The notes beneath the pieces were generated by a model that ran no database searches, was not told the origin of the DNA, and saw nothing but the letters and a program-made list of their open reading frames with translations. Positions 532 through 42,002 of a DNA stretch of 42,002 nt are shown here, one piece after another; within the stretch, counting starts at the first letter, position 1, and each line of letters starts with the position of its first letter. Both the position numbers and the translations under genes were made by a program. This DNA is from a virus. Taxonomy: Duplodnaviria; Heunggongvirae; Uroviricota; Caudoviricetes. Where the stretch lies: IMG/VR virus record IMGVR_UViG_2563366918_000005; one strand, written 5' to 3'.

Positions 532-1071
532 ATGAAGAAAGTTTTTCTTTGCGCCATCTTAGCCTCCTTAAGCTATCCGGCTATCGCCTCATCATTGCAG
601 GATCAACTCTCTGCTGTCGCAGAAGCGGAACAGCAAGGTAAAAATGAAGAGCAAAGGCAGCATGACGAATGGATCGCGGAGCGCAACAGGGAAATCCAGC
701 AAGAGAAGCAACGTCGCGCAAACGCCCAGGCCGCCGCTAACAAAAGAGCGGCAACGGCAGCGGCAAATAAGAAAGCTCGTCAGGATAAACTGGATGCCGA
801 AGCCACTGCGGACAAAAAACGCGATCAAAGTTATGAAGATGAGCTACGCAGCTTAGAGATTCAGAAACAAAAACTGGCGCTGGCGAAAGAAGAAGCCCGC
901 GTTAAGCGCGAAAACGAATTTATCGATCAGGAACTGAAGCACAAAGCTGCGCAAACCGATGTGGTGCAATCTGAAGCTGACGCAAACAGGAATATGACTG
1001 AGGGCGGTCGCGATCTGATGAAAAGCGTGGGCAAAGCAGAAGAGAACAAATCGGACAGCTGGTTTAACTAA
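532..1071 (+). CDS. yfgI: Secreted/periplasmic coiled-coil protein (YfgI-like), host gene
   Basis: RBS AGGAGG at 522-527, ATG 532; N-terminal signal peptide (…AIASS); charged, K/E/Q/A-rich body; 179 aa. Symbol from size and context only. Confidence 0.5.
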   Translation: MKKVFLCAILASLSYPAIASSLQDQLSAVAEAEQQGKNEEQRQHDEWIAERNREIQQEKQRRANAQAAANKRAATAAANKKARQDKLDAEATADKKRDQSYEDELRSLEIQKQKLALAKEEARVKRENEFIDQELKHKAAQTDVVQSEADANRNMTEGGRDLMKSVGKAEENKSDSWFN

Positions 1072-1142: not shown

Positions 1143-1850
1143 CAAATGCGCCTATAAGGCTCTCTTACCAGCCGCGCCCTAACAGGCGCACACGATCTGA
1201 CATTTGCATCCAACTTCGTTACTTACGGCCCGTAAACGGGCTGCCCGGATAGGGAATCGATAACTGCTCTCCCATTTTATCCTCTTCAAGCTGGTGCTTT
1301 ATGTAATCCTGTATCTTCGCCGTGTTCTTACCCACTGTATCGACGTAGTACCCTCTGCACCAGAACTCCCTGTTCCTGTATTTGAATTTCAAATCACCAA
1401 ACTGCTCGTAAAGCATCAGACTGCTTTTCCCTTTCAGATATCCCATAAACCCGGATACGCTCATTTTAGGCGGGATCTCCACAAGCATATGGATATGATC
1501 TGCACAGCATTCAGCTTCCAGAATCCGTACGCTTTTCCACTCACACAGCTTTCTCAAAATACTGCCTATTGCTCTACGCTTCTCTCTGTAGAACACCTGT
1601 CTTCGGTATTTTGGCGCAAAAACTATGTGATATTTACAGTTCCATCGGGTGTGCGCTAAGCTCTTTTCGTTCCCCATTGGGACCCCCTTTTGATTTCTTG
1701 TTTGACACTTGCAGTTGCCAGACCGCAAGGTGTTTTAACAAATCAAAAGGGGTTTTAATAACTGGCTCAAAGCTGAAAGCTTTCCGGAACCCCCAGCCTA
1801 GCTGGGGGTTTTCTGTGCACAAAAAACCCTCTGTAGTAACAGAGGGTTTT
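1143..1850 (-). mobile_element. IS200 insertion sequence (about 708 bp)
   Basis: Contains IS200-type tnpA. Boundaries inferred from IS200 geometry (about 172 nt left end before tnpA start, about 77 nt after stop); left-end hairpins seen at 1823-1850 (AAAACCCTCTGT-AGTA-ACAGAGGGTTTT) and 1788-1810. Confidence 0.65.
1219..1677 (-). CDS. tnpA: IS200/IS605-family transposase TnpA (HUH Y1 type)
   Basis: 152-aa product MGNEKSLAHTRWNCKYHIVFAPKYRR…HIHMLVEIPPK… matches IS200 TnpA; start at the internal Met of track ORF 1219..1728. Confidence 0.85.
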   Translation of the reverse strand: MGNEKSLAHTRWNCKYHIVFAPKYRRQVFYREKRRAIGSILRKLCEWKSVRILEAECCADHIHMLVEIPPKMSVSGFMGYLKGKSSLMLYEQFGDLKFKYRNREFWCRGYYVDTVGKNTAKIQDYIKHQLEEDKMGEQLSIPYPGSPFTGRK

Positions 1851-1874
1851 GTTCATTCATAGTGCAGGGTCAAA

Positions 1875-1889
1875 TCATTCCCACTCAAT
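1875..1889 (-). other. Prophage-host junction core: remnant of guaA 3' end (…IEWE-stop)
   Basis: Minus strand reads ATT GAG TGG GAA TGA (I-E-W-E-stop), the conserved GMP synthase C-terminus; the upstream in-frame codon is a stop, so only the last codons remain, as expected at an att junction. Confidence 0.45.
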
Positions 1890-1999
1890 TATTTACGGAT
1901 ACCATAACCAATTGAGTGATAACATTTTTCCAAATCTCAATTTTTACCGTACCGTTTTATATACCGTCACCGGAAATCAGTACCATGAAAAATGCCATG

Positions 2000-2482
2000 C
2001 TATCTGGTCAGGGTGTCGTACTGTTTTTCACAGACTCTTCCGGCTTCGGCTGCCCGGTCAGCATACTCTGCCAGTTGTCTGTTTCTCTCGAGAGATTTAC
2101 TGAGCACGTCGGCAAGCAAAACTCCGGTGTCTGCGGCTGACGTCCCAGCGCCGACAATGGCGTTATACTGCCTGAGCTGCTCACGGATGGCAACGAGCTG
2201 TTGCTGCAACCGGCCAGCGCGAGCGGCAGCATCAAGAGCATCATTGCGCGCCTGGTCGATCCTCTGCTGCGCTTCACGTTCATTGATCGATTTCTCCTGT
2301 TCGTAGTGCTGACGAACTCTCTCATCTTCGGTTTTGCGGTCTTCTTTCGCCTGTGCATACCCGGCGTCGTACTGACGACTACCGTGTACATTCCAGGCAA
2401 CAACCCCTGATATGACCAGAACAGCAAGCACCGCCACGATAAGCAACTGTTTCCAGTATGCTTTTACGAATGCCCAGATCAT
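2000..2482 (-). CDS. i-spanin (Rz-like): N-terminal TM helix plus coiled coil
   Basis: 160 aa; TM segment [18 protein letters not shown] then charged coiled coil; start ATG overlaps endolysin stop (ATGA); last gene of the lysis cassette. Confidence 0.65.
2008..2244 (-). CDS. o-spanin (Rz1-like) lipoprotein, nested in the +1 frame of the Rz-like gene
   Basis: Internal start in track ORF 2008..2427 gives [13 protein letters not shown]… with lipobox LAGC; Pro/Ser-rich 78-aa product; fully embedded in the i-spanin gene. Confidence 0.6.
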   Translation of the reverse strand: MMLLMLPLALAGCSNSSLPSVSSSGSITPLSALGRQPQTPEFCLPTCSVNLSRETDNWQSMLTGQPKPEESVKNSTTP

Positions 2483-3406: not shown

Positions 3407-3809
3407 CGTCTTTTCTCCCCGGAATTAAATCGCGTGGATTGTCTGAACGGTGGTAGAGCCATATACCAATACGCACAGCGACAATTGCTGACACGAATGC
3501 GCCAGCAGAGAAAACAATACCTTTTTCAAAAGAGTCCTGCGTGATGGTAGGGATCAGGCTGGCTATGCCGATAAGAATTGATGCTGCTGGTTTGTAGAAA
3601 AGAAGTCCGCAGAGAAAGCTGAGCATCGACAAGAGTACGCGACGACGAATTGGATACTCTACCGCAGAGGTAACAAAAATTACCGCGCCAGCAAGAGCAC
3701 CGAGCGCCACCTCTGGCGGAACGCCTACGATAACCGCAGCAAGAGAGCTCACACTAAGCCATTGATTTAAAGACTCAGTTGTTATGTTAACCGACATAGC
3801 ACACACCAT
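3393..3809 (-). CDS. Holin
   Basis: 138 aa with 3-4 TM helices and charged C-terminus; possible dual-start motif M-V-C-A-M; first gene of the lysis cassette. Confidence 0.6.
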   Translation of the reverse strand: MVCAMSVNITTESLNQWLSVSSLAAVIVGVPPEVALGALAGAVIFVTSAVEYPIRRRVLLSMLSFLCGLLFYKPAASILIGIASLIPTITQDSFEKGIVFSAGAFVSAIVAVRIGIWLYHRSDNPRDLIPGRKDDGNA

Positions 3810-3972
3810 TTTTTTTGTACATATCGAACCTCTTCACTTACAGATCACCACACACAACAAACCATATATGTTTAACCATCAGATATTCTGAAATAACTAT
3901 CAATTCATTGGTTTTTGATGACAATATTCATAAACAACCATAAATGTAAGGCGGTTTATTAGTTGCCAAAAT

Positions 3973-6579
3973 TTATTTCCTGCAAACTCCAGATGATGTT
4001 AATCCATCAAAAATAACCTGCACTCTGGCAATAACAACATCAACTCCAGAAGTCGTTTCACTTGCATAACCAAGTTTTATTTTAGATACAATATCCTGAG
4101 TAAGTTCAGATATTTCAGTTTCTGCAATGTTACCAGAGGCCATGTGATTATCGTATGCCATAGAATGAATTCCATTATTGACATCGATTGAACTAGTATG
4201 TTTGTGAAAAATAGATGGGTTTACCTGAAACGAATTTGAACCGATAAGATCAGAATATACTCCATTCATCACTGCAGTACAGCGTGGAATATTATTATCG
4301 GTTATTGTCATATGCAGACGGTTACCAGTTAACCCCTCACCAAGTGTGACATAATACGCCAATTCTCCACCTGCATATTGTTTCCCCTCAACAATAACAG
4401 TAATCCCTCTTAATTTCTGATTAGCTAGCAAAAACTTATTACTGTCTATATAGCATTTATTTGCGGAACCAAAAACAGCCCCTTCTAAAATATCTGATGA
4501 ATAGGAATAAATAAGGTCACCTGAAACAAAGGAAAGAATATCAGATACGTTTCCTTTTTTAGATAAGTTAGGAGAATAGCTATTAACTATTTCATATTGT
4601 CCTGTGATAAAATCAAGGTAAACGCCATCAGTTTTCATCTCTTTAAAGAAAATGCTATTAAAGCATCCATCAAGAACCGGTGGATATATTCTAGAGCTTG
4701 CATAAGCTGTTGGGTGATTCTTATTATTACCACTACCAGGCGAATAAACATCTTCGTTAGTCATTGACTTTTTAAGCTTAACAGGAATCATCGGCTGCAT
4801 ATCAATTTTGCAGTTCCCTGAACCACCGATGCGAGGATAAAATAAACCACCAAACCTTACAATATTACTACTGAATAGTATTTCGTTATCGTTAAGTGTT
4901 ATCTCAACGAAGTTTCCAATAAGTTTAAATTCAACTGAAAACAAACCAAGTGGAGCAGATAATTTAACAATATTGCGCATAAAAACACCTACAGTCCCTG
5001 TTGATGCAGTATAGTGTGTGGTTTCAAAGGCAGAGCCTGTATATTTCAAGTTAATGAAATTATTATGGTATGAAGACAATTGAAATTGAATCCCAGAACT
5101 AAGGATTTCAATATCTACAAATTGAATCCTTACGGAGTAAGCATATGATAAATCTTCATATTCATAAGGCAATGTAACATCTTTTGAAATAGTTGCCCTC
5201 ACATAATTACCAGAAACCACATCAATCCCATCACGTACAGCATTAAAGTAACGATTAAAATCAATAAGCCCAGCGCCAACATACTGCGCATATGACCGAG
5301 TCCATCCTGCCATTGCGTTTCGTCCATTCTGAGCTTCTAAACTGCTAAATTCAGAGTCACTTGTGGTACTTGATGGGAGGATATTTGTACAAAAAATAAT
5401 TTCAGGCATTGAAGTAATATCATTCAGTTCAGCCATCAATTTAAAAAAAGTTTTCTGCGGGAAGTTACCAACATCCCAACCATCTCCGTCATTCATGCCA
5501 AAAGCAATAATAACAACATCAGGGTTAATATCACGAATGTAATCAATCCAGCGTCTGTTCGTGTCTGAATACCATGGGTACTGTGAGTTATAAGAAGTAA
5601 TTGCTGGTGTATCTTTTCCAAGGTCATAGTACCTCATTCCACCAATTGCTCTGTTAAATAAAGTAGAACTTGGGAATTTCTCTTGCAAAACTCTCTTAAG
5701 ATGAGCGGCAAAAATGCTTGATCGATCCACTGTGCTTATATTATATGGGGCACTTAAGCTGTCACCAACTAACACTATTTTTGAGTTAGGCCTTGATAAT
5801 CTCTCAAGTGTTTTAGATGTGACTAAACTGCAGGAATTAATGAACTGAGTACTATTTAGCATCTGTTCAAGTGTATCACCAAATCTGGTACCAACGTATG
5901 ATGATCCGTTGACACTTGCTAGCTTAAGGCATAAATCAGCAGTATCTGTAATTGAAAAAATAGGAACAGGACGTCCTAAACTGTCATACCCCTGAATTGA
6001 GTTTGCCCTAGAAGATGCTGATGCCATTTCGCTTACTATCTCAGGGAAGCGGAGTGTTTTAGATATGTTGCTGTTAATAACTCCTTTGATAGATGAGTCT
6101 GTATATTTCTTCGTGGAAGCGTCCTGAGGAAATAATGGATCATCAAGGTTACGAATACGATTGCCGAGTGCATCGTAGTAAGTGGCACTAAATGATGGTT
6201 TACGAAGAGCCAGCCGAGCCATGCTTTTGACTAACTGGATCAGCATCGTTAGCTTATCAAAAGCATCCTCATGCACTTCCGCAAAGAACTTACCCTGATT
6301 GCGCAGATCAGTTTCCTGTGTAACCGGTAGCTCTCGTGATATAGAAATCTTATAGCCATTGGCCAACGCCTTCGACAATATTACATTTCCACCATTGTAT
6401 CCTCCGGCCCCGGTAACTATATAATCAGTATCAAGAGTCAGTACGGTGATATTTTCATGAATATCAACAACCTGCACAATCAAATCAGATTTATTGAAAA
6501 CCCTAAAGGCATACGGAAACGATGTCGTAACGCCGTTACCGGTGTATTCGTTGTGGTCAACTTCGGTTGAGACCGTCAT
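3973..6579 (-). CDS. Tailspike/tail fibre protein with central SGNH (GDSL) esterase-like domain
   Basis: 868 aa; RBS GGAG 7 nt before ATG 6579; N-terminal motif YTGNGVTTSFPYAF; central KIVLVGDSLSAPYN and VIIAFGMNDGDG blocks of SGNH hydrolases; C-terminal Ser/Asn/Gly-rich region; distal two thirds look AT-rich. Confidence 0.7.
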   Translation of the reverse strand: MTVSTEVDHNEYTGNGVTTSFPYAFRVFNKSDLIVQVVDIHENITVLTLDTDYIVTGAGGYNGGNVILSKALANGYKISISRELPVTQETDLRNQGKFFAEVHEDAFDKLTMLIQLVKSMARLALRKPSFSATYYDALGNRIRNLDDPLFPQDASTKKYTDSSIKGVINSNISKTLRFPEIVSEMASASSRANSIQGYDSLGRPVPIFSITDTADLCLKLASVNGSSYVGTRFGDTLEQMLNSTQFINSCSLVTSKTLERLSRPNSKIVLVGDSLSAPYNISTVDRSSIFAAHLKRVLQEKFPSSTLFNRAIGGMRYYDLGKDTPAITSYNSQYPWYSDTNRRWIDYIRDINPDVVIIAFGMNDGDGWDVGNFPQKTFFKLMAELNDITSMPEIIFCTNILPSSTTSDSEFSSLEAQNGRNAMAGWTRSYAQYVGAGLIDFNRYFNAVRDGIDVVSGNYVRATISKDVTLPYEYEDLSYAYSVRIQFVDIEILSSGIQFQLSSYHNNFINLKYTGSAFETTHYTASTGTVGVFMRNIVKLSAPLGLFSVEFKLIGNFVEITLNDNEILFSSNIVRFGGLFYPRIGGSGNCKIDMQPMIPVKLKKSMTNEDVYSPGSGNNKNHPTAYASSRIYPPVLDGCFNSIFFKEMKTDGVYLDFITGQYEIVNSYSPNLSKKGNVSDILSFVSGDLIYSYSSDILEGAVFGSANKCYIDSNKFLLANQKLRGITVIVEGKQYAGGELAYYVTLGEGLTGNRLHMTITDNNIPRCTAVMNGVYSDLIGSNSFQVNPSIFHKHTSSIDVNNGIHSMAYDNHMASGNIAETEISELTQDIVSKIKLGYASETTSGVDVVIARVQVIFDGLTSSGVCRK

Positions 6580-7346: not shown

Positions 7347-8039
7347 ATGAATACCAAACCTTCCATCTTTTCCTTTGAGTCATCCTGCCAGATCCGTATG
7401 TTCATGATTGACGGAGAACCTTGGTTTGTCACCAAAGATGTGTGCAATGCTTTGAATATTGATGTTACACAAGCGAGAAAACTTGATAAAAAAGGCTGGA
7501 ACAAAAAGGGGCTGTATTCAATACAGACCCCTGGTGGAATACAAGAACTATCCATCGTTTCAGAATCAGGTCTCTACATCCTTATTCTGCGTTGCAAAGA
7601 GGCAATGACTGAGGGAACGAGAGCATTCAGATTTCTTGAATGGGTTACAGGCGAGGTTCTTCCTCAGATCCGCCGCACCGGAAGTTACATTAAAAACTCG
7701 CTACCGCAGGAAGAACGCATAAAGATGGTTGCCGACCAGGTAGCCAACGCCACGGCGTCAGCAGTAATGCAGGCGATGAAGATAGAGAACAAAACCTACA
7801 ACGCCCCGCTGAAGCCCGGCTACCGCAGCCTGATTCATTCCCCGTCTGGTGTTCTCGGCCTGACGGAGAACTCACTGCTGATGAATCTGCTGAACCAGTT
7901 ACAGGAAGACGGGCACGACGTATCGGGCGCGGCGGCGGAGCTGACCACCATGTTCTGCTACATCGTCGGTGTGAGCAAATGCCTGCGTGATATCCAGACG
8001 CACGCGGAGTACATCAACGACAAAGCAGGGTTCTTCTGA
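7347..8039 (+). CDS. Antirepressor (N-terminal BRO-N domain, C-terminal Ant/KilAC domain)
   Basis: RBS GGTGA 5 nt before ATG 7347; N-terminus FSFESSCQIRMFMIDGEPWFVTKDVCNALNI matches the BRO-N pattern; C-terminal domain paralogous to 6775..7032. Confidence 0.7.
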   Translation: MNTKPSIFSFESSCQIRMFMIDGEPWFVTKDVCNALNIDVTQARKLDKKGWNKKGLYSIQTPGGIQELSIVSESGLYILILRCKEAMTEGTRAFRFLEWVTGEVLPQIRRTGSYIKNSLPQEERIKMVADQVANATASAVMQAMKIENKTYNAPLKPGYRSLIHSPSGVLGLTENSLLMNLLNQLQEDGHDVSGAAAELTTMFCYIVGVSKCLRDIQTHAEYINDKAGFF

Positions 8040-8103
8040 CGGGCGGCGGCACAGGGATGTGCCTTTAAATAATTCTGTACAGATTGCAGGTGAATAGCTT
8101 ACT

Positions 8104-8120
8104 ATTACCTCACGGGTGAT
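8104..8120. promoter_or_regulatory. Operator-like imperfect palindrome ATTACCTCACGGGTGAT
   Basis: Left half perfect, right half GGTGAT; lies upstream of the mini-ORF and the 8249 gene. Confidence 0.3.
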
Positions 8121-8156
8121 CCATAGCGATTAGGCACCGATACAGGAGGAGCCCAC

Positions 8157-8189
8157 ATGAGAAAATTTGACGAGTACGAAGGCGTTTAA
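8157..8189 (+). other. 10-codon mini-ORF (MRKFDEYEGV) with strong SD; leader-peptide candidate
   Basis: AGGAGG at 8144-8149, 7 nt before ATG 8157; stop at 8187-8189; followed by the hairpin at 8208-8231. Confidence 0.3.
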
Positions 8190-8207
8190 CATTCGGATAG
8201 TTTAATG

Positions 8208-8231
8208 ACGGGGCCATTAGGCCCCGTTTTC
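8208..8231 (+). terminator. Rho-independent terminator / attenuator hairpin
   Basis: ACGGGGCC-ATTA-GGCCCCGT stem followed by TTTT. Confidence 0.55.
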
Positions 8232-8248
8232 ATGTCTGGAGACAGTTT

Positions 8249-8788
8249 GTGTTAAGTGAAGAAATGCAATTTGCCATGGCTGTGGCTCAAATCGTAAGTG
8301 CAGTCGCGGTTTCGCTTGGCTTGTTCATAGCTATCGCTACTATTATTTATAATGTAAATACAGCGAGAAAAGTACACACTTCAGTATTCCTTGGTGAAAG
8401 CAGGTTTGATGTAGATTATAAGAAAGGCCTATCTACTATGCGCCGCATTCACGAATCGAACAAATCATTCCGCTCTTATATGTATCCAAGCAATGGGCAG
8501 GCTGATCTTACGGATGAAGAAAAGACAGAGAAGAGAGAAATAATTTACTGTCTAGGTTTCTACGAACGCATGGCTGTGAGCGTGAAGCGGAAAACTTATG
8601 ATGAGACCATGATTAAGGAAGTATTTTACAGCTCCGTTGTAAATAACTATCAGATTGCGCTACCTCTTATACAAGCCATTAGAGAAAAAGAAAACATAAA
8701 CACATATTTTAAAGAATATGAATGGTTGGCCACACGATGGAAGGATTGCCCATTGAAGGATAAATCCCCGTGGTACAAGTTTTGGTAA
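8249..8788 (+). CDS. Hypothetical membrane-anchored protein (AT-rich accessory gene; exclusion/defence candidate)
   Basis: RBS GGAGA 6 nt before GTG 8249 (alternative ATG 8264); N-terminal TM helix AVAQIVSAVAVSLGLFIAIATIIY then about 140-aa soluble domain; visibly AT-rich; followed by a terminator-like T-run at about 8789-8811. Confidence 0.55.
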   Translation: MLSEEMQFAMAVAQIVSAVAVSLGLFIAIATIIYNVNTARKVHTSVFLGESRFDVDYKKGLSTMRRIHESNKSFRSYMYPSNGQADLTDEEKTEKREIIYCLGFYERMAVSVKRKTYDETMIKEVFYSSVVNNYQIALPLIQAIREKENINTYFKEYEWLATRWKDCPLKDKSPWYKFW

Positions 8789-27055: not shown

Positions 27056-27249
27056 CCAACGCCATTCATGGCCATATCAATGATTTTCTGGTGCGTACCG
27101 GGTTGAGAAGCGGTGTAAGTGAACTGCAGTTGCCATGTTTTACGGCAGTGAGAGCAGAGATAGCGCTGATGTCCGGCGGTGCTTTTGCCGTTACGCACCA
27201 CCCCGTCAGTAGCTGAACAGGAGGGACAGCTGATAGAAACAGAAGCCAC
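26974..27249 (-). CDS. insA: IS1 InsA
   Basis: 91 aa, [42 protein letters not shown]… matches IS1 InsA. Confidence 0.85.
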
Positions 27250-27304
27250 TGGAGCACCTCAAAAACACCATCATACACTAAATCAGTAAGTTGGCAGCAT
27301 CACC

Positions 27305-27313
27305 TGCTGCCTA
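27305..27313. repeat. IS1 target-site duplication TGCTGCCTA (right copy)
   Basis: See left copy. Confidence 0.8.
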
Positions 27314-27864
27314 TTACCATGGGTAAACAATATCATTAACGTATGGCAAGCAAAGCCTCTTGATAATAATGACTCAATCGAAAATCACCTGAAGGCAAGA
27401 AAAATCCAGCGTGAAACAAGACTGCAGAGGTTATTGGCTAAAAAAGATGTTACATACGACAAAGTTAAGACTGGCGCGGAAAAAGACATCCAAGAGATGA
27501 AAGAAGAGATTATTCGATCAAAGAATAGTATGGGGGAATTGACTGCCGAGTTGAAAGCTAAAGATGACGAATTGAGATCCGCCAGTGCTCAGTTAGCAGC
27601 TCTAAATCATTCATTAAAAGAGATATCGGAAACTCTTGGAAGAATGAATGAGGCATATAAGACCCTCCAAAATGATTTCGACGAATACAAACTCAAATAC
27701 CCTGAAAAATCTCAAATAAAAAGCCTTGAACTTGGCAACGGCCAAACAATTAGCAACTTTTTGGAGCAACACAACTTATCCGGATTAAAATCTGGTAAGC
27801 CAAACGTTTTTAATAACTTTGGTGTTCTATCTGGATTATCAGGTTTCGAGGATAAAAATAAAGA

Positions 27865-38786: not shown

Positions 38787-39035
38787 ATGAAAGGTGCATT
38801 AGGTAAGAAGGAACTCCTGGCGGTGGTGCCACTGTCATGGAGCACTATCGACCGTATGGAGCGCGCAGGGGAATTTCCTAAACGCTGGTATATCACCGAT
38901 AAACGCTGCGCATGGAACCGTGATGAAGTTGAGCGTTGGCTTGATGAACGTCAGGCAGCAAGCCCGGCAGAGTTCCAGGGTAAAAAACCTCCTGTTCAGC
39001 AACGTGTATATCGTCCCGTGAGCAACGCGGCATGA
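38787..39035 (+). CDS. AlpA-family regulator / excisionase-like protein
   Basis: 82 aa; RBS AGAGAGG; …LSWSTIDRMERAGEFPKRWYITDKRCAWNRDEVERWL… fits AlpA/Xis-type pattern. Confidence 0.55.
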   Translation: MKGALGKKELLAVVPLSWSTIDRMERAGEFPKRWYITDKRCAWNRDEVERWLDERQAASPAEFQGKKPPVQQRVYRPVSNAA

Positions 39036-39444: not shown

Positions 39445-40087
39445 GAAATACACACTAATCTATGCAGATCCACCCTGGGTATACCGGGACAAAGCCGCAG
39501 ATGGTAATCGCGGTGCCGGTTTTAAATATCCGGTTATGAGTGTGCTGGATATCTGCCGCCTTCCTGTGTGGGATTTGGCCGATGAAAACTGTCTGTTGGC
39601 CATGTGGTGGGTGCCAACACAACCACTCGAAGCACTAAAAGTTGTTGAAGCCTGGGGATTCCGTCTGATGACCATGAAGGGCTTCACGTGGATAAAATGT
39701 GGTAGTCGACAACCAGATAAACTGGTTATGGGTATGGGACACATGACTCGCGCCAATAGTGAAGATTGCCTGTTTGCAGTAAAGGGAAAACTACCTCCGC
39801 GCATTAATGCAGGGATCGTTCAGTCATTTACCGCACCGCGGCTTGAGCATTCAAGAAAACCAGATGTCGTTCGTGAAAAACTTGTGCAATTGTTAGGCGA
39901 TGTTTCTCGCATTGAACTGTTCGCCCGCCAGTCGTCTCATGGCTTCGATGTTTGGGGTAATCAGTGCGAAGACCCGGCAGTGCAACTACACCCTGGATAC
40001 GCATTGGATATTGCCAGATTAACAAATGCATTCAGCAATGCTCAGGTGTCACCAATAGACAACCAGGGGCGGGAGCGTGCAGCATGA
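39437..40087 (+). CDS. DNA N6-adenine methyltransferase, MT-A70 family
   Basis: 216 aa; catalytic DPPW motif (…[10 protein letters not shown]…). Confidence 0.7.
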
Positions 40088-40743
40088 ACCTATATCAACG
40101 CATCAATGGCGCTGACTGGTGCAATATCTTCGTCGTCGGCGATCTGCATGGGTGCTACACGCTGCTGATGAACGAACTCGACAAAGTTTCATTCGACCCG
40201 GCGCGCGATTTACTTATTTCCGTTGGTGACCTTGTTGACCGCGGCGCTGAAAACGTCGAATGCCTGGATTTGATTACTATGCCGTGGTTCCGAGCTGTTC
40301 GTGGCAACCATGAGCAGATGATGCTGGATGCACTGGTCAACGGCGGAAGTTTCGGACATTGGATGTCAAACGGCGGTGGATGGTGGCACCAACTTGATTC
40401 TGAGCAGGATGTGCAACTCAAATACCTTCTGCCAAAGATTACCAACCTCCCGATGATTATCGAACTGGTTACCGGCAATAAGAAGGTCGTCATCTGTCAC
40501 GCAGACTACCCGCACAACGAATACGCATTCGATAAGCCAGTACCAGAAGAAATGGTGATATGGAATCGTGAGCGGGTTAGCGACGCGCAGGACGGTATTG
40601 TCTCGGAGATAACCGGTGCCGATTTGTTCATCTTCGGTCATACGCCAGCACATCACCCACTGGTGTATGCAAACCAGATGTACATCGACACCGGCGCAGT
40701 GTTCTGCGGAAATCTGACGCTTACCAAAGTCCAGGAAGGATAG
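40084..40743 (+). CDS. Ser/Thr protein phosphatase, lambda-type metallophosphoesterase
   Basis: 219 aa from ATG 40084 (RBS GGGAG); motifs GDLHG, GDLVDRG, GNHE; start overlaps methyltransferase stop. Confidence 0.75.
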
Positions 40744-40745
40744 AA

Positions 40746-42002
40746 TTATTTATTACTGTCTTCCATCCACCTCTCAAACTTCGACGGGGAGAACGGAATC
40801 AGATCCGTATGCTCCCCGTTAATCCAGGAATCAATCATATCGGCCCACTGCTGCAACATGTAGGCGCGCTGTCTGGCGTATTCCGCTTTGTTATATACGG
40901 CGCGCACACCTTTCTGCTCATGTGCCAGAGCCTTTTCAATCCAGTCTGAAGGATAACCAGCCTCATGCAACAACGTACTGGCTGTACGGCGCATATCATG
41001 TACGGTGAAGTCCTGAATATGCTCACCATCTTCATTTATTATTTTCACCGTTCTGTCGATCAGAGAGTTCAGCGCGGCATTAGATAATGGCTTCCGGAAG
41101 TTGTAACGACCAGGAACCAGATATTCACTTCCACCAGCGCACATCTGCAACCCGACCAATATATCCTGTGCCTGTTTAGGCAGGTAAATAACATGCGCCC
41201 GGCTTCCCTTCATGCGGTCTGAAGGAATTGTCCATGTCCATTTTTTAAAATCTATTTCGTCCCACGTTGCATTGGTGAATTCGCCTTTACGAACCATAGT
41301 GATAAGCACCAGCTTTAAAGCCATTTTCATAGTGCCCATAGCACCAATGGCATCCAGCGTGCGGAAGAACAGGCCAATTTCTTCTGGTGTCAGTGTTCGC
41401 TCTCGTGGTTTAAATATGGCGATAGACGAAGGTTTAATGTCAGCCGCAGGATTAAACAAACCATGACCACGGTCATTGGCGTGACGGTATACGCTGCTGA
41501 TGATCTCCCTGGCCTGCACTGCTGTTGCCCGACCACCGCGTTCGACAATCCGGTCACACAAATCACGAACCATCGATGTGGTAATTTCAGTCATCATTTT
41601 GTTGCCAAGAAACGGAAGTATGTCACGGTCGATCACCGCCTGCTTCATTGCGCGGGTACTGTCAGCCAGGATGACATGTTTCATATAACTGTCGGTATGT
41701 ACCGCAAACGTCTCGGCACCACGAATCTTTTTGATACCGTCACGTTTAGCCGCAGCCGGTGACTGGCCTGCTTTAAGCAGCTTCTTTGCAGCAATCAGTT
41801 CTTCTCGCGCTTCTGCCAGGCTGATACCGTCACGCCCATACTGCCCGATTACCAGTGTTTCGCGGCGACCGTTGATACGGTAGTCATAGCGAAACGAGAC
41901 CGTGCCTGACGTAAGCACAGCTACATACAGCCCGTCACGATCGGAGACCTTGTACAGTTTGTCCTGCGGCTTGAGGTTTTTTAATTTTGTATCGGTAAGC
42001 AC
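40746..42002 (-). CDS. Tyrosine integrase (P4-like N-terminal domain), truncated by window edge
   Basis: N-terminus …LTDTKLKNLKPQDKLYKVSDRDGLY…; C-terminal catalytic region with …HDMRRT…; ORF open at 42002 so the true start may lie beyond the window. Confidence 0.85.
   Translation of the reverse strand: MLTDTKLKNLKPQDKLYKVSDRDGLYVAVLTSGTVSFRYDYRINGRRETLVIGQYGRDGISLAEAREELIAAKKLLKAGQSPAAAKRDGIKKIRGAETFAVHTDSYMKHVILADSTRAMKQAVIDRDILPFLGNKMMTEITTSMVRDLCDRIVERGGRATAVQAREIISSVYRHANDRGHGLFNPAADIKPSSIAIFKPRERTLTPEEIGLFFRTLDAIGAMGTMKMALKLVLITMVRKGEFTNATWDEIDFKKWTWTIPSDRMKGSRAHVIYLPKQAQDILVGLQMCAGGSEYLVPGRYNFRKPLSNAALNSLIDRTVKIINEDGEHIQDFTVHDMRRTASTLLHEAGYPSDWIEKALAHEQKGVRAVYNKAEYARQRAYMLQQWADMIDSWINGEHTDLIPFSPSKFERWMEDSNK

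Follow-up and report, generated by a model that had tools for sequence, protein, structure and literature searches.

The 17-bp segment at positions 1873-1889 of the window, as we call the whole 42,002-nucleotide stretch of DNA that was analysed, is almost certainly (we would put it at about 97%) the attR core of an integrated temperate podophage of the epsilon15/phiV10/ZX5 type (genus Uetakevirus). This att junction marks the right-hand boundary of a ~40-kb Uetakevirus prophage. Insertion of a phage at the guaA 3' end, as proposed by an initial annotation made from the sequence alone, was borne out: host homology runs to position 1889, phage homology starts at 1873, and the rebuilt attP is contiguous in free phages. 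The features at and around the junction were as follows.

1-516: yfgH, E. coli chromosome
532-1071, plus strand: yfgI (DUF5384), the convergent natural neighbour of guaA
1116-1820, minus strand: IS200C (annotated as such), between yfgI and the guaA terminator; tnpA at 1219-1677, Pfam Y1_Tnp
1821-1872, minus strand: host DNA downstream of guaA (B' arm), 100% identical to unoccupied E. coli chromosomes
~1823-1850: yfgI/guaA bidirectional terminator hairpin, fold -21.8 kcal/mol, z = -4.85
1873-1889, minus strand: att core, attR copy; 17 bp, ATTGAGTGGGAATGATT, i.e., the last four guaA codons, TGA and TT
1890-1999, minus strand: phage arm of attR (attP arm, from the Rz spanin gene to the core), collinear with attP of phiV10, ZX5, and epsilon15
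1961-1970, minus strand: predicted arm-type integrase-binding repeat GTGACGGTAT, an exact 10-mer in the P arm
2000-2482, minus strand: Rz-like spanin, the final phage gene before attR, reading towards the core; Pfam DUF2514 (E = 6.6e-44), collinear with phiV10 p30

On the plus strand, positions 1875-1889 read tcattcccactcaat, and the reverse complement, ATTGAGTGGGAATGA, translates as I-E-W-E-stop. The E. coli GuaA protein ends in ...GKPPATIEWE*, and its last four codons and stop are found at window 1875-1889 on the minus strand; the IEWE-stop taken by the initial annotation for the C-terminus of GMP synthase is therefore an exact match to the end of E. coli guaA. The minus strand at the junction reads CCG TAA ATA ATT GAG TGG GAA TGA. 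Thus, the in-frame stop that had been described as immediately upstream does exist (1893-1895), but it is not adjacent, being separated from the guaA-derived codons by a single phage-derived ATA codon at the place where guaA has ACT. When the window was compared with uninterrupted E. coli chromosomes, host homology (yfgH, yfgI, IS200C, and the guaA terminator) stopped exactly at 1889, while homology to the free phage genomes of phiV10 and vB_EcoP_ZX5 started exactly at 1873. Host and phage homologies consequently overlap by 17 bp (1873-1889; ATTGAGTGGGAATGATT). The core had been placed at 1875-1889, which does lie within the repeat, but the repeat is 17 bp long and reaches 2 nt past the stop, to 1873. 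The same 17 bp are common to attB of an unoccupied chromosome (NZ_CP030768.1; L002), attL of a near-identical lysogen (NZ_AP022222.1; L001), and attR of the window, and they are present exactly once each in phiV10, ZX5, and epsilon15, between the Rz gene and int.

We weighed the possibility that the 15-mer reads IEWE-stop by chance in non-coding DNA and has nothing to do with guaA. Loose matches to it do occur: with up to two mismatches, shuffled sequence yielded a mean of 0.15 matches and the window held one extra match, at 19040-19054. However, the exact 15-mer, of which the 42-kb window holds a single copy, would be expected only ~8e-5 times in 84 kb of two-strand sequence (calculated), the adjoining 52 bp on the host side are 100% identical to guaA-downstream DNA in thousands of E. 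coli genomes, and host homology breaks off at the phage boundary. A chance origin is vanishingly improbable, and it was rejected on the host-flank identity, the phage boundary, and the alignment of att sites described below. The near-copy at 19040-19054 (minus strand, ATTGAGTGGGAATAT) differs at two positions, lies within a phage structural gene, and was itself judged to be due to chance.

On the host side, the uninterrupted chromosome of NZ_CP030768.1 has the order yfgH, yfgI, IS200C, guaA. Alignment to an uninterrupted guaA-yfgI region, the check that had been suggested for the junction, gave the predicted outcome, with the host match ending at 1889 and 1821-1889 being 100% identical to unoccupied genomes. 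The boundaries of IS200C were fixed by means of a K-12-type chromosome that lacks this element and in which 1821-1889 also matches. Like the window, strain 2017C-4173W12, whose attB is unoccupied, carries IS200C; since yfgI, IS200C, and guaA are contiguous there, yfgI is simply the natural neighbour of guaA, and the suggestion that the junction accounts for the yfgI-like gene beside it was correct. The presence of IS200C in a strain with an unoccupied attB also means that this element is older than, or independent of, the prophage. The junction thereby explains the local order of yfgH, yfgI, IS200C, and the guaA stump, which is useful for annotation. IS200C directly adjoins the yfgI/guaA bidirectional terminator hairpin and lies 55 bp from the guaA stump. 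A consensus terminator scan of the window did not call the host guaA hairpin, though folding shows it clearly, probably because its A/T-extended stem consumes the T tract.

A guaA pseudogene stump might in principle stem from a deletion or an IS-mediated rearrangement and not from site-specific recombination, and the window does contain two insertion sequences, IS200C (1116-1820) and an IS1 (26537-27303). However, the same IS200C occupies the same place beside an uninterrupted guaA, so it did not create the junction, and a stump generated by IS200C was rejected for this reason. In addition, the stump consists of exactly the 17-bp core that occurs once in free phage genomes, and near-identical genomes have a full-length guaA at the other end of the prophage. 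A rearrangement is accordingly a very improbable source of the stump.

The attR core was next placed in the context of the prophage to which it belongs. The main features of the prophage were:

1873-42002 and continuing past the window, minus strand: Uetakevirus-type prophage, ~40 kb, collinear with phiV10 and ZX5
3973-6579, minus strand: tailspike, 868 aa, with a GDSL/SGNH esterase domain (Pfam Lipase_GDSL_2)
26537-27303: IS1 with a 9-bp target duplication, TGCTGCCTA; InsB ORF at 26552-27055 (Pfam DDE_Tnp_IS1, 3e-75)
38787-39035, plus strand: AlpA-family small DNA-binding protein (Pfam Phage_AlpA, E = 3.1e-05, above the gathering score), counterpart of phiV10 p36
40746-42002, minus strand: P4-type tyrosine integrase, 418 aa, with its GTG start at the last base of the window
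41481-41490 (plus), 41734-41743 (minus), and 41824-41833 (minus): three further exact copies of GTGACGGTAT in the 5' part of int

From position 1890 on, all genes are phage genes. The Rz-like spanin, a GH19 endolysin, two holins, and the SGNH-domain tailspike come first, followed by genes for internal virion, tail, capsid, portal, terminase, replication, repressor, RecT/exonuclease, AlpA-family, methyltransferase, phosphatase, and integrase proteins. The structural, lysis, integration, and replication modules are collinear with those of phiV10 and ZX5, and DNA identity to these two phages is 98.4-98.6% in the structural block and 98.5-99.2% in the integrase gene.

The last base of the window belongs to the integrase start codon, and the predicted attL lies 190 bp further on. 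By extrapolation, the attL core would occupy positions 42193-42209, with the prophage ending ~207 bp past the window and a predicted plus-strand sequence of AATCATTCCCACTCAAT. The corresponding region can be read in NZ_AP022222.1, which is 99.8-100% identical over the whole window except that it lacks one 767-bp insertion (the IS1). There, the order is xseA, guaB, full-length guaA, the 17-bp core (L001 7297-7313), 190 bp, and int (7504-8760), whose product (WP_001546935.1) is identical to the integrase of the window. The L001 locus has two copies of the core, 39.6 kb apart, with only phage genes between them, and the second copy corresponds to window 1873-1889. Furthermore, the exact 418-aa integrase was found in 535 index blocks; all 24 of the long contigs that were read carried guaB, guaA (525 aa), and int, and in both inspected loci with the identical integrase (L007 and L008) the core lay 190 bp before int. 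The GuaA accession, WP_000138279.1, is the same in the lysogen L001 and the non-lysogen L002, indicating that integration leaves the guaA coding sequence unaltered. A copy of the guaA end at the integrase side, as had been expected, is present in L001, where a full-length guaA ends in the core, and the 24 contigs likewise have a full-length guaA before int, but the copy is not a coding replacement supplied by the phage, as had been supposed. Since the crossover falls inside an identical core, guaA is never truncated, and the phage swaps only the guaA 3' flank, providing the core, a new flank, and a terminator at the integrase side and no replacement coding segment. Phage 21 and e14 integrate into the 3' end of icd, where the attB core overlaps the end of a housekeeping gene and the element restores the reading frame. 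In contrast to these, the duplicated coding part here amounts to only four codons and a stop inside the identical core, with no alternative C-terminus.

To rebuild attP, both prophage arms were joined round one core, the attL arm being taken from L001, giving a predicted attP of 1217 bp. This sequence was contiguous over 100% of its length in the free phages BP9 (99.4% identity), EC.W1-9 (97.3%), ZX5 (96.6%), and phiV10 (96.5%); identity was 86.4% in epsilon15, and epsilon15, SPN1S, and their relatives (~86%) likewise held it contiguously at full length. In total, 21 phage records matched over at least 80% of the length and, among the matches listed, 16 did so over 100%. Contiguity of the predicted attP in free phages is the outcome expected from the hypothesis of insertion at guaA. 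A six-way alignment of attB, attL, attR, and the attP sites of phiV10, ZX5, and epsilon15 gave the same picture, as attR is composed of the P arm, core, and B' arm, and attL of the B arm, core, and P' arm.

The prophage encodes a plausible machinery for recombination at this site. By Pfam, the integrase combines an arm-binding domain at the N-terminus with a tyrosine recombinase catalytic domain at the C-terminus (Arm-DNA-bind_3, 3.9e-20; Phage_int_M, 1.8e-11; Phage_integrase, 1.4e-19). In epsilon15 (record AY150271), the depositors predicted integrase binding sites at four occurrences of the 10-mer GTGACGGTAT, and the copies inside int here fall where such sites are annotated in that phage. 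The window holds four exact copies, all of them either next to the att core or no more than ~520 bp from where int starts, against ~0.08 expected by chance (calculated); no further exact copy was found elsewhere in the window. Another copy lies outside the window in the P' arm (L001 7438-7447), so that predicted arm-type sites are present on both sides of the core. The AlpA-family protein is a candidate excisionase, or recombination directionality factor.

The attP of the phage and the attB of the host share the 17-bp ATTGAGTGGGAATGATT, which in the host forms the end of guaA (four codons, the stop, and two bases). From these components, we infer the following mechanism. The P4-type tyrosine integrase would exchange strands within this core in a Campbell-type integration, acting through its arm-binding N-terminal domain and the GTGACGGTAT sites on both arms, probably with the use of IHF (the IHF sites of epsilon15 are depositor predictions). 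The core is duplicated: in the near-identical genomes the integrase-side copy (attL) still completes a full-length guaA, and the attR copy of the window is flanked by the phage lysis cassette on one side and by the old guaA terminator and yfgI on the other. Excision would be carried out by the integrase together with the AlpA-family protein, and the prophage is, judging from its sequence, presumably still mobile.

Alternatively, the attR could be a true one that belongs to a decayed and immobile remnant, in which case it would be a fossil and not a working site. One prophage gene is indeed interrupted by IS1, and several early-region and tailspike modules differ from those of phiV10 and ZX5. 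However, the integrase, AlpA, repressor, replication, terminase, portal, capsid, tail, and lysis genes are intact ORFs collinear with those of active phages, IS1 sits in an accessory gene of a variable region, and both arms and the core are intact. We therefore regard a fossil site as unlikely, though less so than the other alternatives considered, and favour the attR of a mobile prophage.

Integration exchanges the DNA downstream of guaA for a phage arm, and this arm carries a terminator, AACCCTCTGTTTTTACAGAGGGTTTTT, at L001 7358-7381, ~45-70 bp past the attL core. This sequence is an annotated terminator in phiV10 and epsilon15 and has a fold of -20.6 kcal/mol. Counted on the alignment, 25 of 27 positions agree with the E. 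coli guaA terminator, AACCCTCTGTTACTACAGAGGGTTTTT, while the spacers between core and hairpin are unrelated. In other Enterobacterales, and in the islands inserted in them, the terminator is of a different type, GCCCGC..GCGGGC: it was seen at island-occupied sites in Citrobacter and in Enterobacteriaceae strain RIT714, resembling the unoccupied guaA end of Raoultella, and also at the guaA ends of Tatumella and Rosenbergiella, which have a near-identical flank. The likeness between phage and host terminators suggests that the attP arms may derive from host guaA flanks, which would preserve guaA termination. Whether guaA-targeting elements in general carry a host-type guaA terminator at a set distance past the core, integration swapping the guaA 3' UTR and terminator for an equivalent, is a more tentative proposition, to which we give somewhat less than even odds. 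If true, attP arms would be captured host DNA that records the ancestral host and is kept by selection for guaA expression.

The junction is common among E. coli. With a 191-bp query (window 1800-1990) and at least 80% of it covered, we found it in 550 of 5426 complete E. coli genomes (~10%). Most of the 30 spread rows listed for this query matched only 1821-1889 and were annotated guaA, which indicates an unoccupied site. Beyond E. coli, the exact 17-mer occurred at no fewer than 120 loci in species-representative genomes. Among the matches listed, 108 were genuine guaA ends (...KPP[AG]TIEWE*), from Alpha-, Beta-, and Gammaproteobacteria, Firmicutes, cyanobacteria, Chloroflexi, and archaea, and 12 were stump-like with no guaA upstream. 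The IEWE C-terminus of GMP synthase is invariant in these 108 listed ends, all of which were picked by the exact 17-mer. As the core encodes this invariant C-terminus, the guaA end is a widely shared target; indeed, an integrase 43-55% identical to the present one begins ~300 bp past the core in ~30 of the 108 listed ends, and such integrases are found at this distance from guaA in many Proteobacteria. Phages and islands thus share guaA as a pan-bacterial integration hotspot, a broader context that was already known. The stump-like 17-mers (L027, L030, L051, L057, L063, L069, L071, L083, L084, L086, L106, and L131) came from very diverse taxa, including Streptococcus oralis, a Spirochaetaceae MAG, and a Methanobacteriaceae MAG, and 8 of the 12 read I-IEWE-stop, as the window does. 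Other guaA-targeting elements may have left these copies as attR-type scars, or they may be due to chance.

Non-phage elements use the site as well. In E. coli GN02270, the identical 17-bp core (L009 7873-7889) is bordered by an island with CoiA-like, PIN, and TraI/MobA relaxase genes, so that within E. coli guaA serves unrelated types of element as a common hotspot. The insertion site of GIsul2 islands is also the guaA 3' end, and their core, 5'-GAGTGGGA-3' (PMC9376610), is nested in the 17-mer. We therefore considered whether the junction might belong to an element of this kind, either a GIsul2-type or a relaxase-bearing island, with the phage lying in tandem beside it. The shared hotspot, the island of GN02270, the nested GIsul2 core, and the related integrases (43-55% identical) that follow guaA in ~30 of the 108 diverse genomes among the matches listed are all compatible with such an arrangement. 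However, the core in the window borders directly on a phage attP arm, with the Rz gene next to it, both collinear with those of phiV10, ZX5, and epsilon15, and L001 has just its two copies of the core with solely phage genes between them. An island at this junction is thus highly improbable, and a non-phage element was rejected in view of the abutting attP arm. Relaxase, toxin-antitoxin, and resistance genes characterize GIsul2 and the related guaA islands, which are mobilizable or resistance islands, whereas the present element is a complete tailed-phage genome: it encodes terminase, portal, capsid, tail, holin, endolysin, and spanin proteins and not the cargo of GIsul2 (relaxase/transfer, resG, toxin-antitoxin, and sul2).

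Assignment of the junction to a Uetakevirus prophage agrees with the published systems. For a ZX5 lysogen, PCR products of attB, attL, and attR were Sanger-sequenced, which placed the core, attgagtgggaatgatt, at the 3' end of guaA and 190 bp 5' of int (PMC9782041, Pathogens 2022), and attP of phiV10 and of epsilon15 is the same 17-bp sequence as the ZX5 core (PMC9782041). Integration of ZX5 had no effect on host growth, biofilm, stress response, antibiotic sensitivity, HeLa-cell adherence, or virulence, among the traits tested (PMC9782041). The present prophage shares with ZX5, phiV10, and epsilon15 the identical 17-bp core, its position at the guaA 3' end, and the 190-bp spacing to a P4-type integrase; its attP arms are 96-97% identical to those of ZX5 and phiV10 and 86% identical to those of epsilon15, with the same arm-type 10-mer and terminator. 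No difference from the three phages was found at the attachment site. Since the guaA att site, the 17-bp core, and the mechanism have been published for ZX5, phiV10, and epsilon15, they were already known, and the junction adds no new biology, being a known site of a known phage family.

Away from the attachment site, the prophage does differ from ZX5, phiV10, and epsilon15, having different tailspike and early-region modules, no oac, a Metallophos gene beside int, and the IS1. Only the N-terminal ~115-200 residues of the tailspike are common to phiV10, ZX5, or solved tailspikes, and neither phiV10 nor ZX5 shows DNA homology to window 3785-6234. A PDB sequence search with the tailspike gave a match limited to the N-terminal adaptor region, which is uninformative on receptor specificity. 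The oac O-acetyltransferase gene is absent from this prophage. Probably, then, the receptor module differs from that of phiV10 and ZX5, and it is possible that the protein is a deacetylating tailspike. The accessory gene that IS1 interrupts lies between terminase and portal, in a variable region of the prophage, and L001 lacks this insertion; with window 26200-27700 as the query and coverage of at least 80%, no complete E. coli genome in the collection had IS1 at this place. A tRNA-Arg gene (anticodon TCT; 25974-26050, plus strand) lies in the same variable region, adjoining the gene disrupted by IS1. At the integrase end, a Metallophos (Ser/Thr phosphatase-like) gene at 39964-40743 (plus strand) adjoins int as a swapped accessory module, its place in phiV10 and ZX5 being taken by a small DUF1382-type gene.
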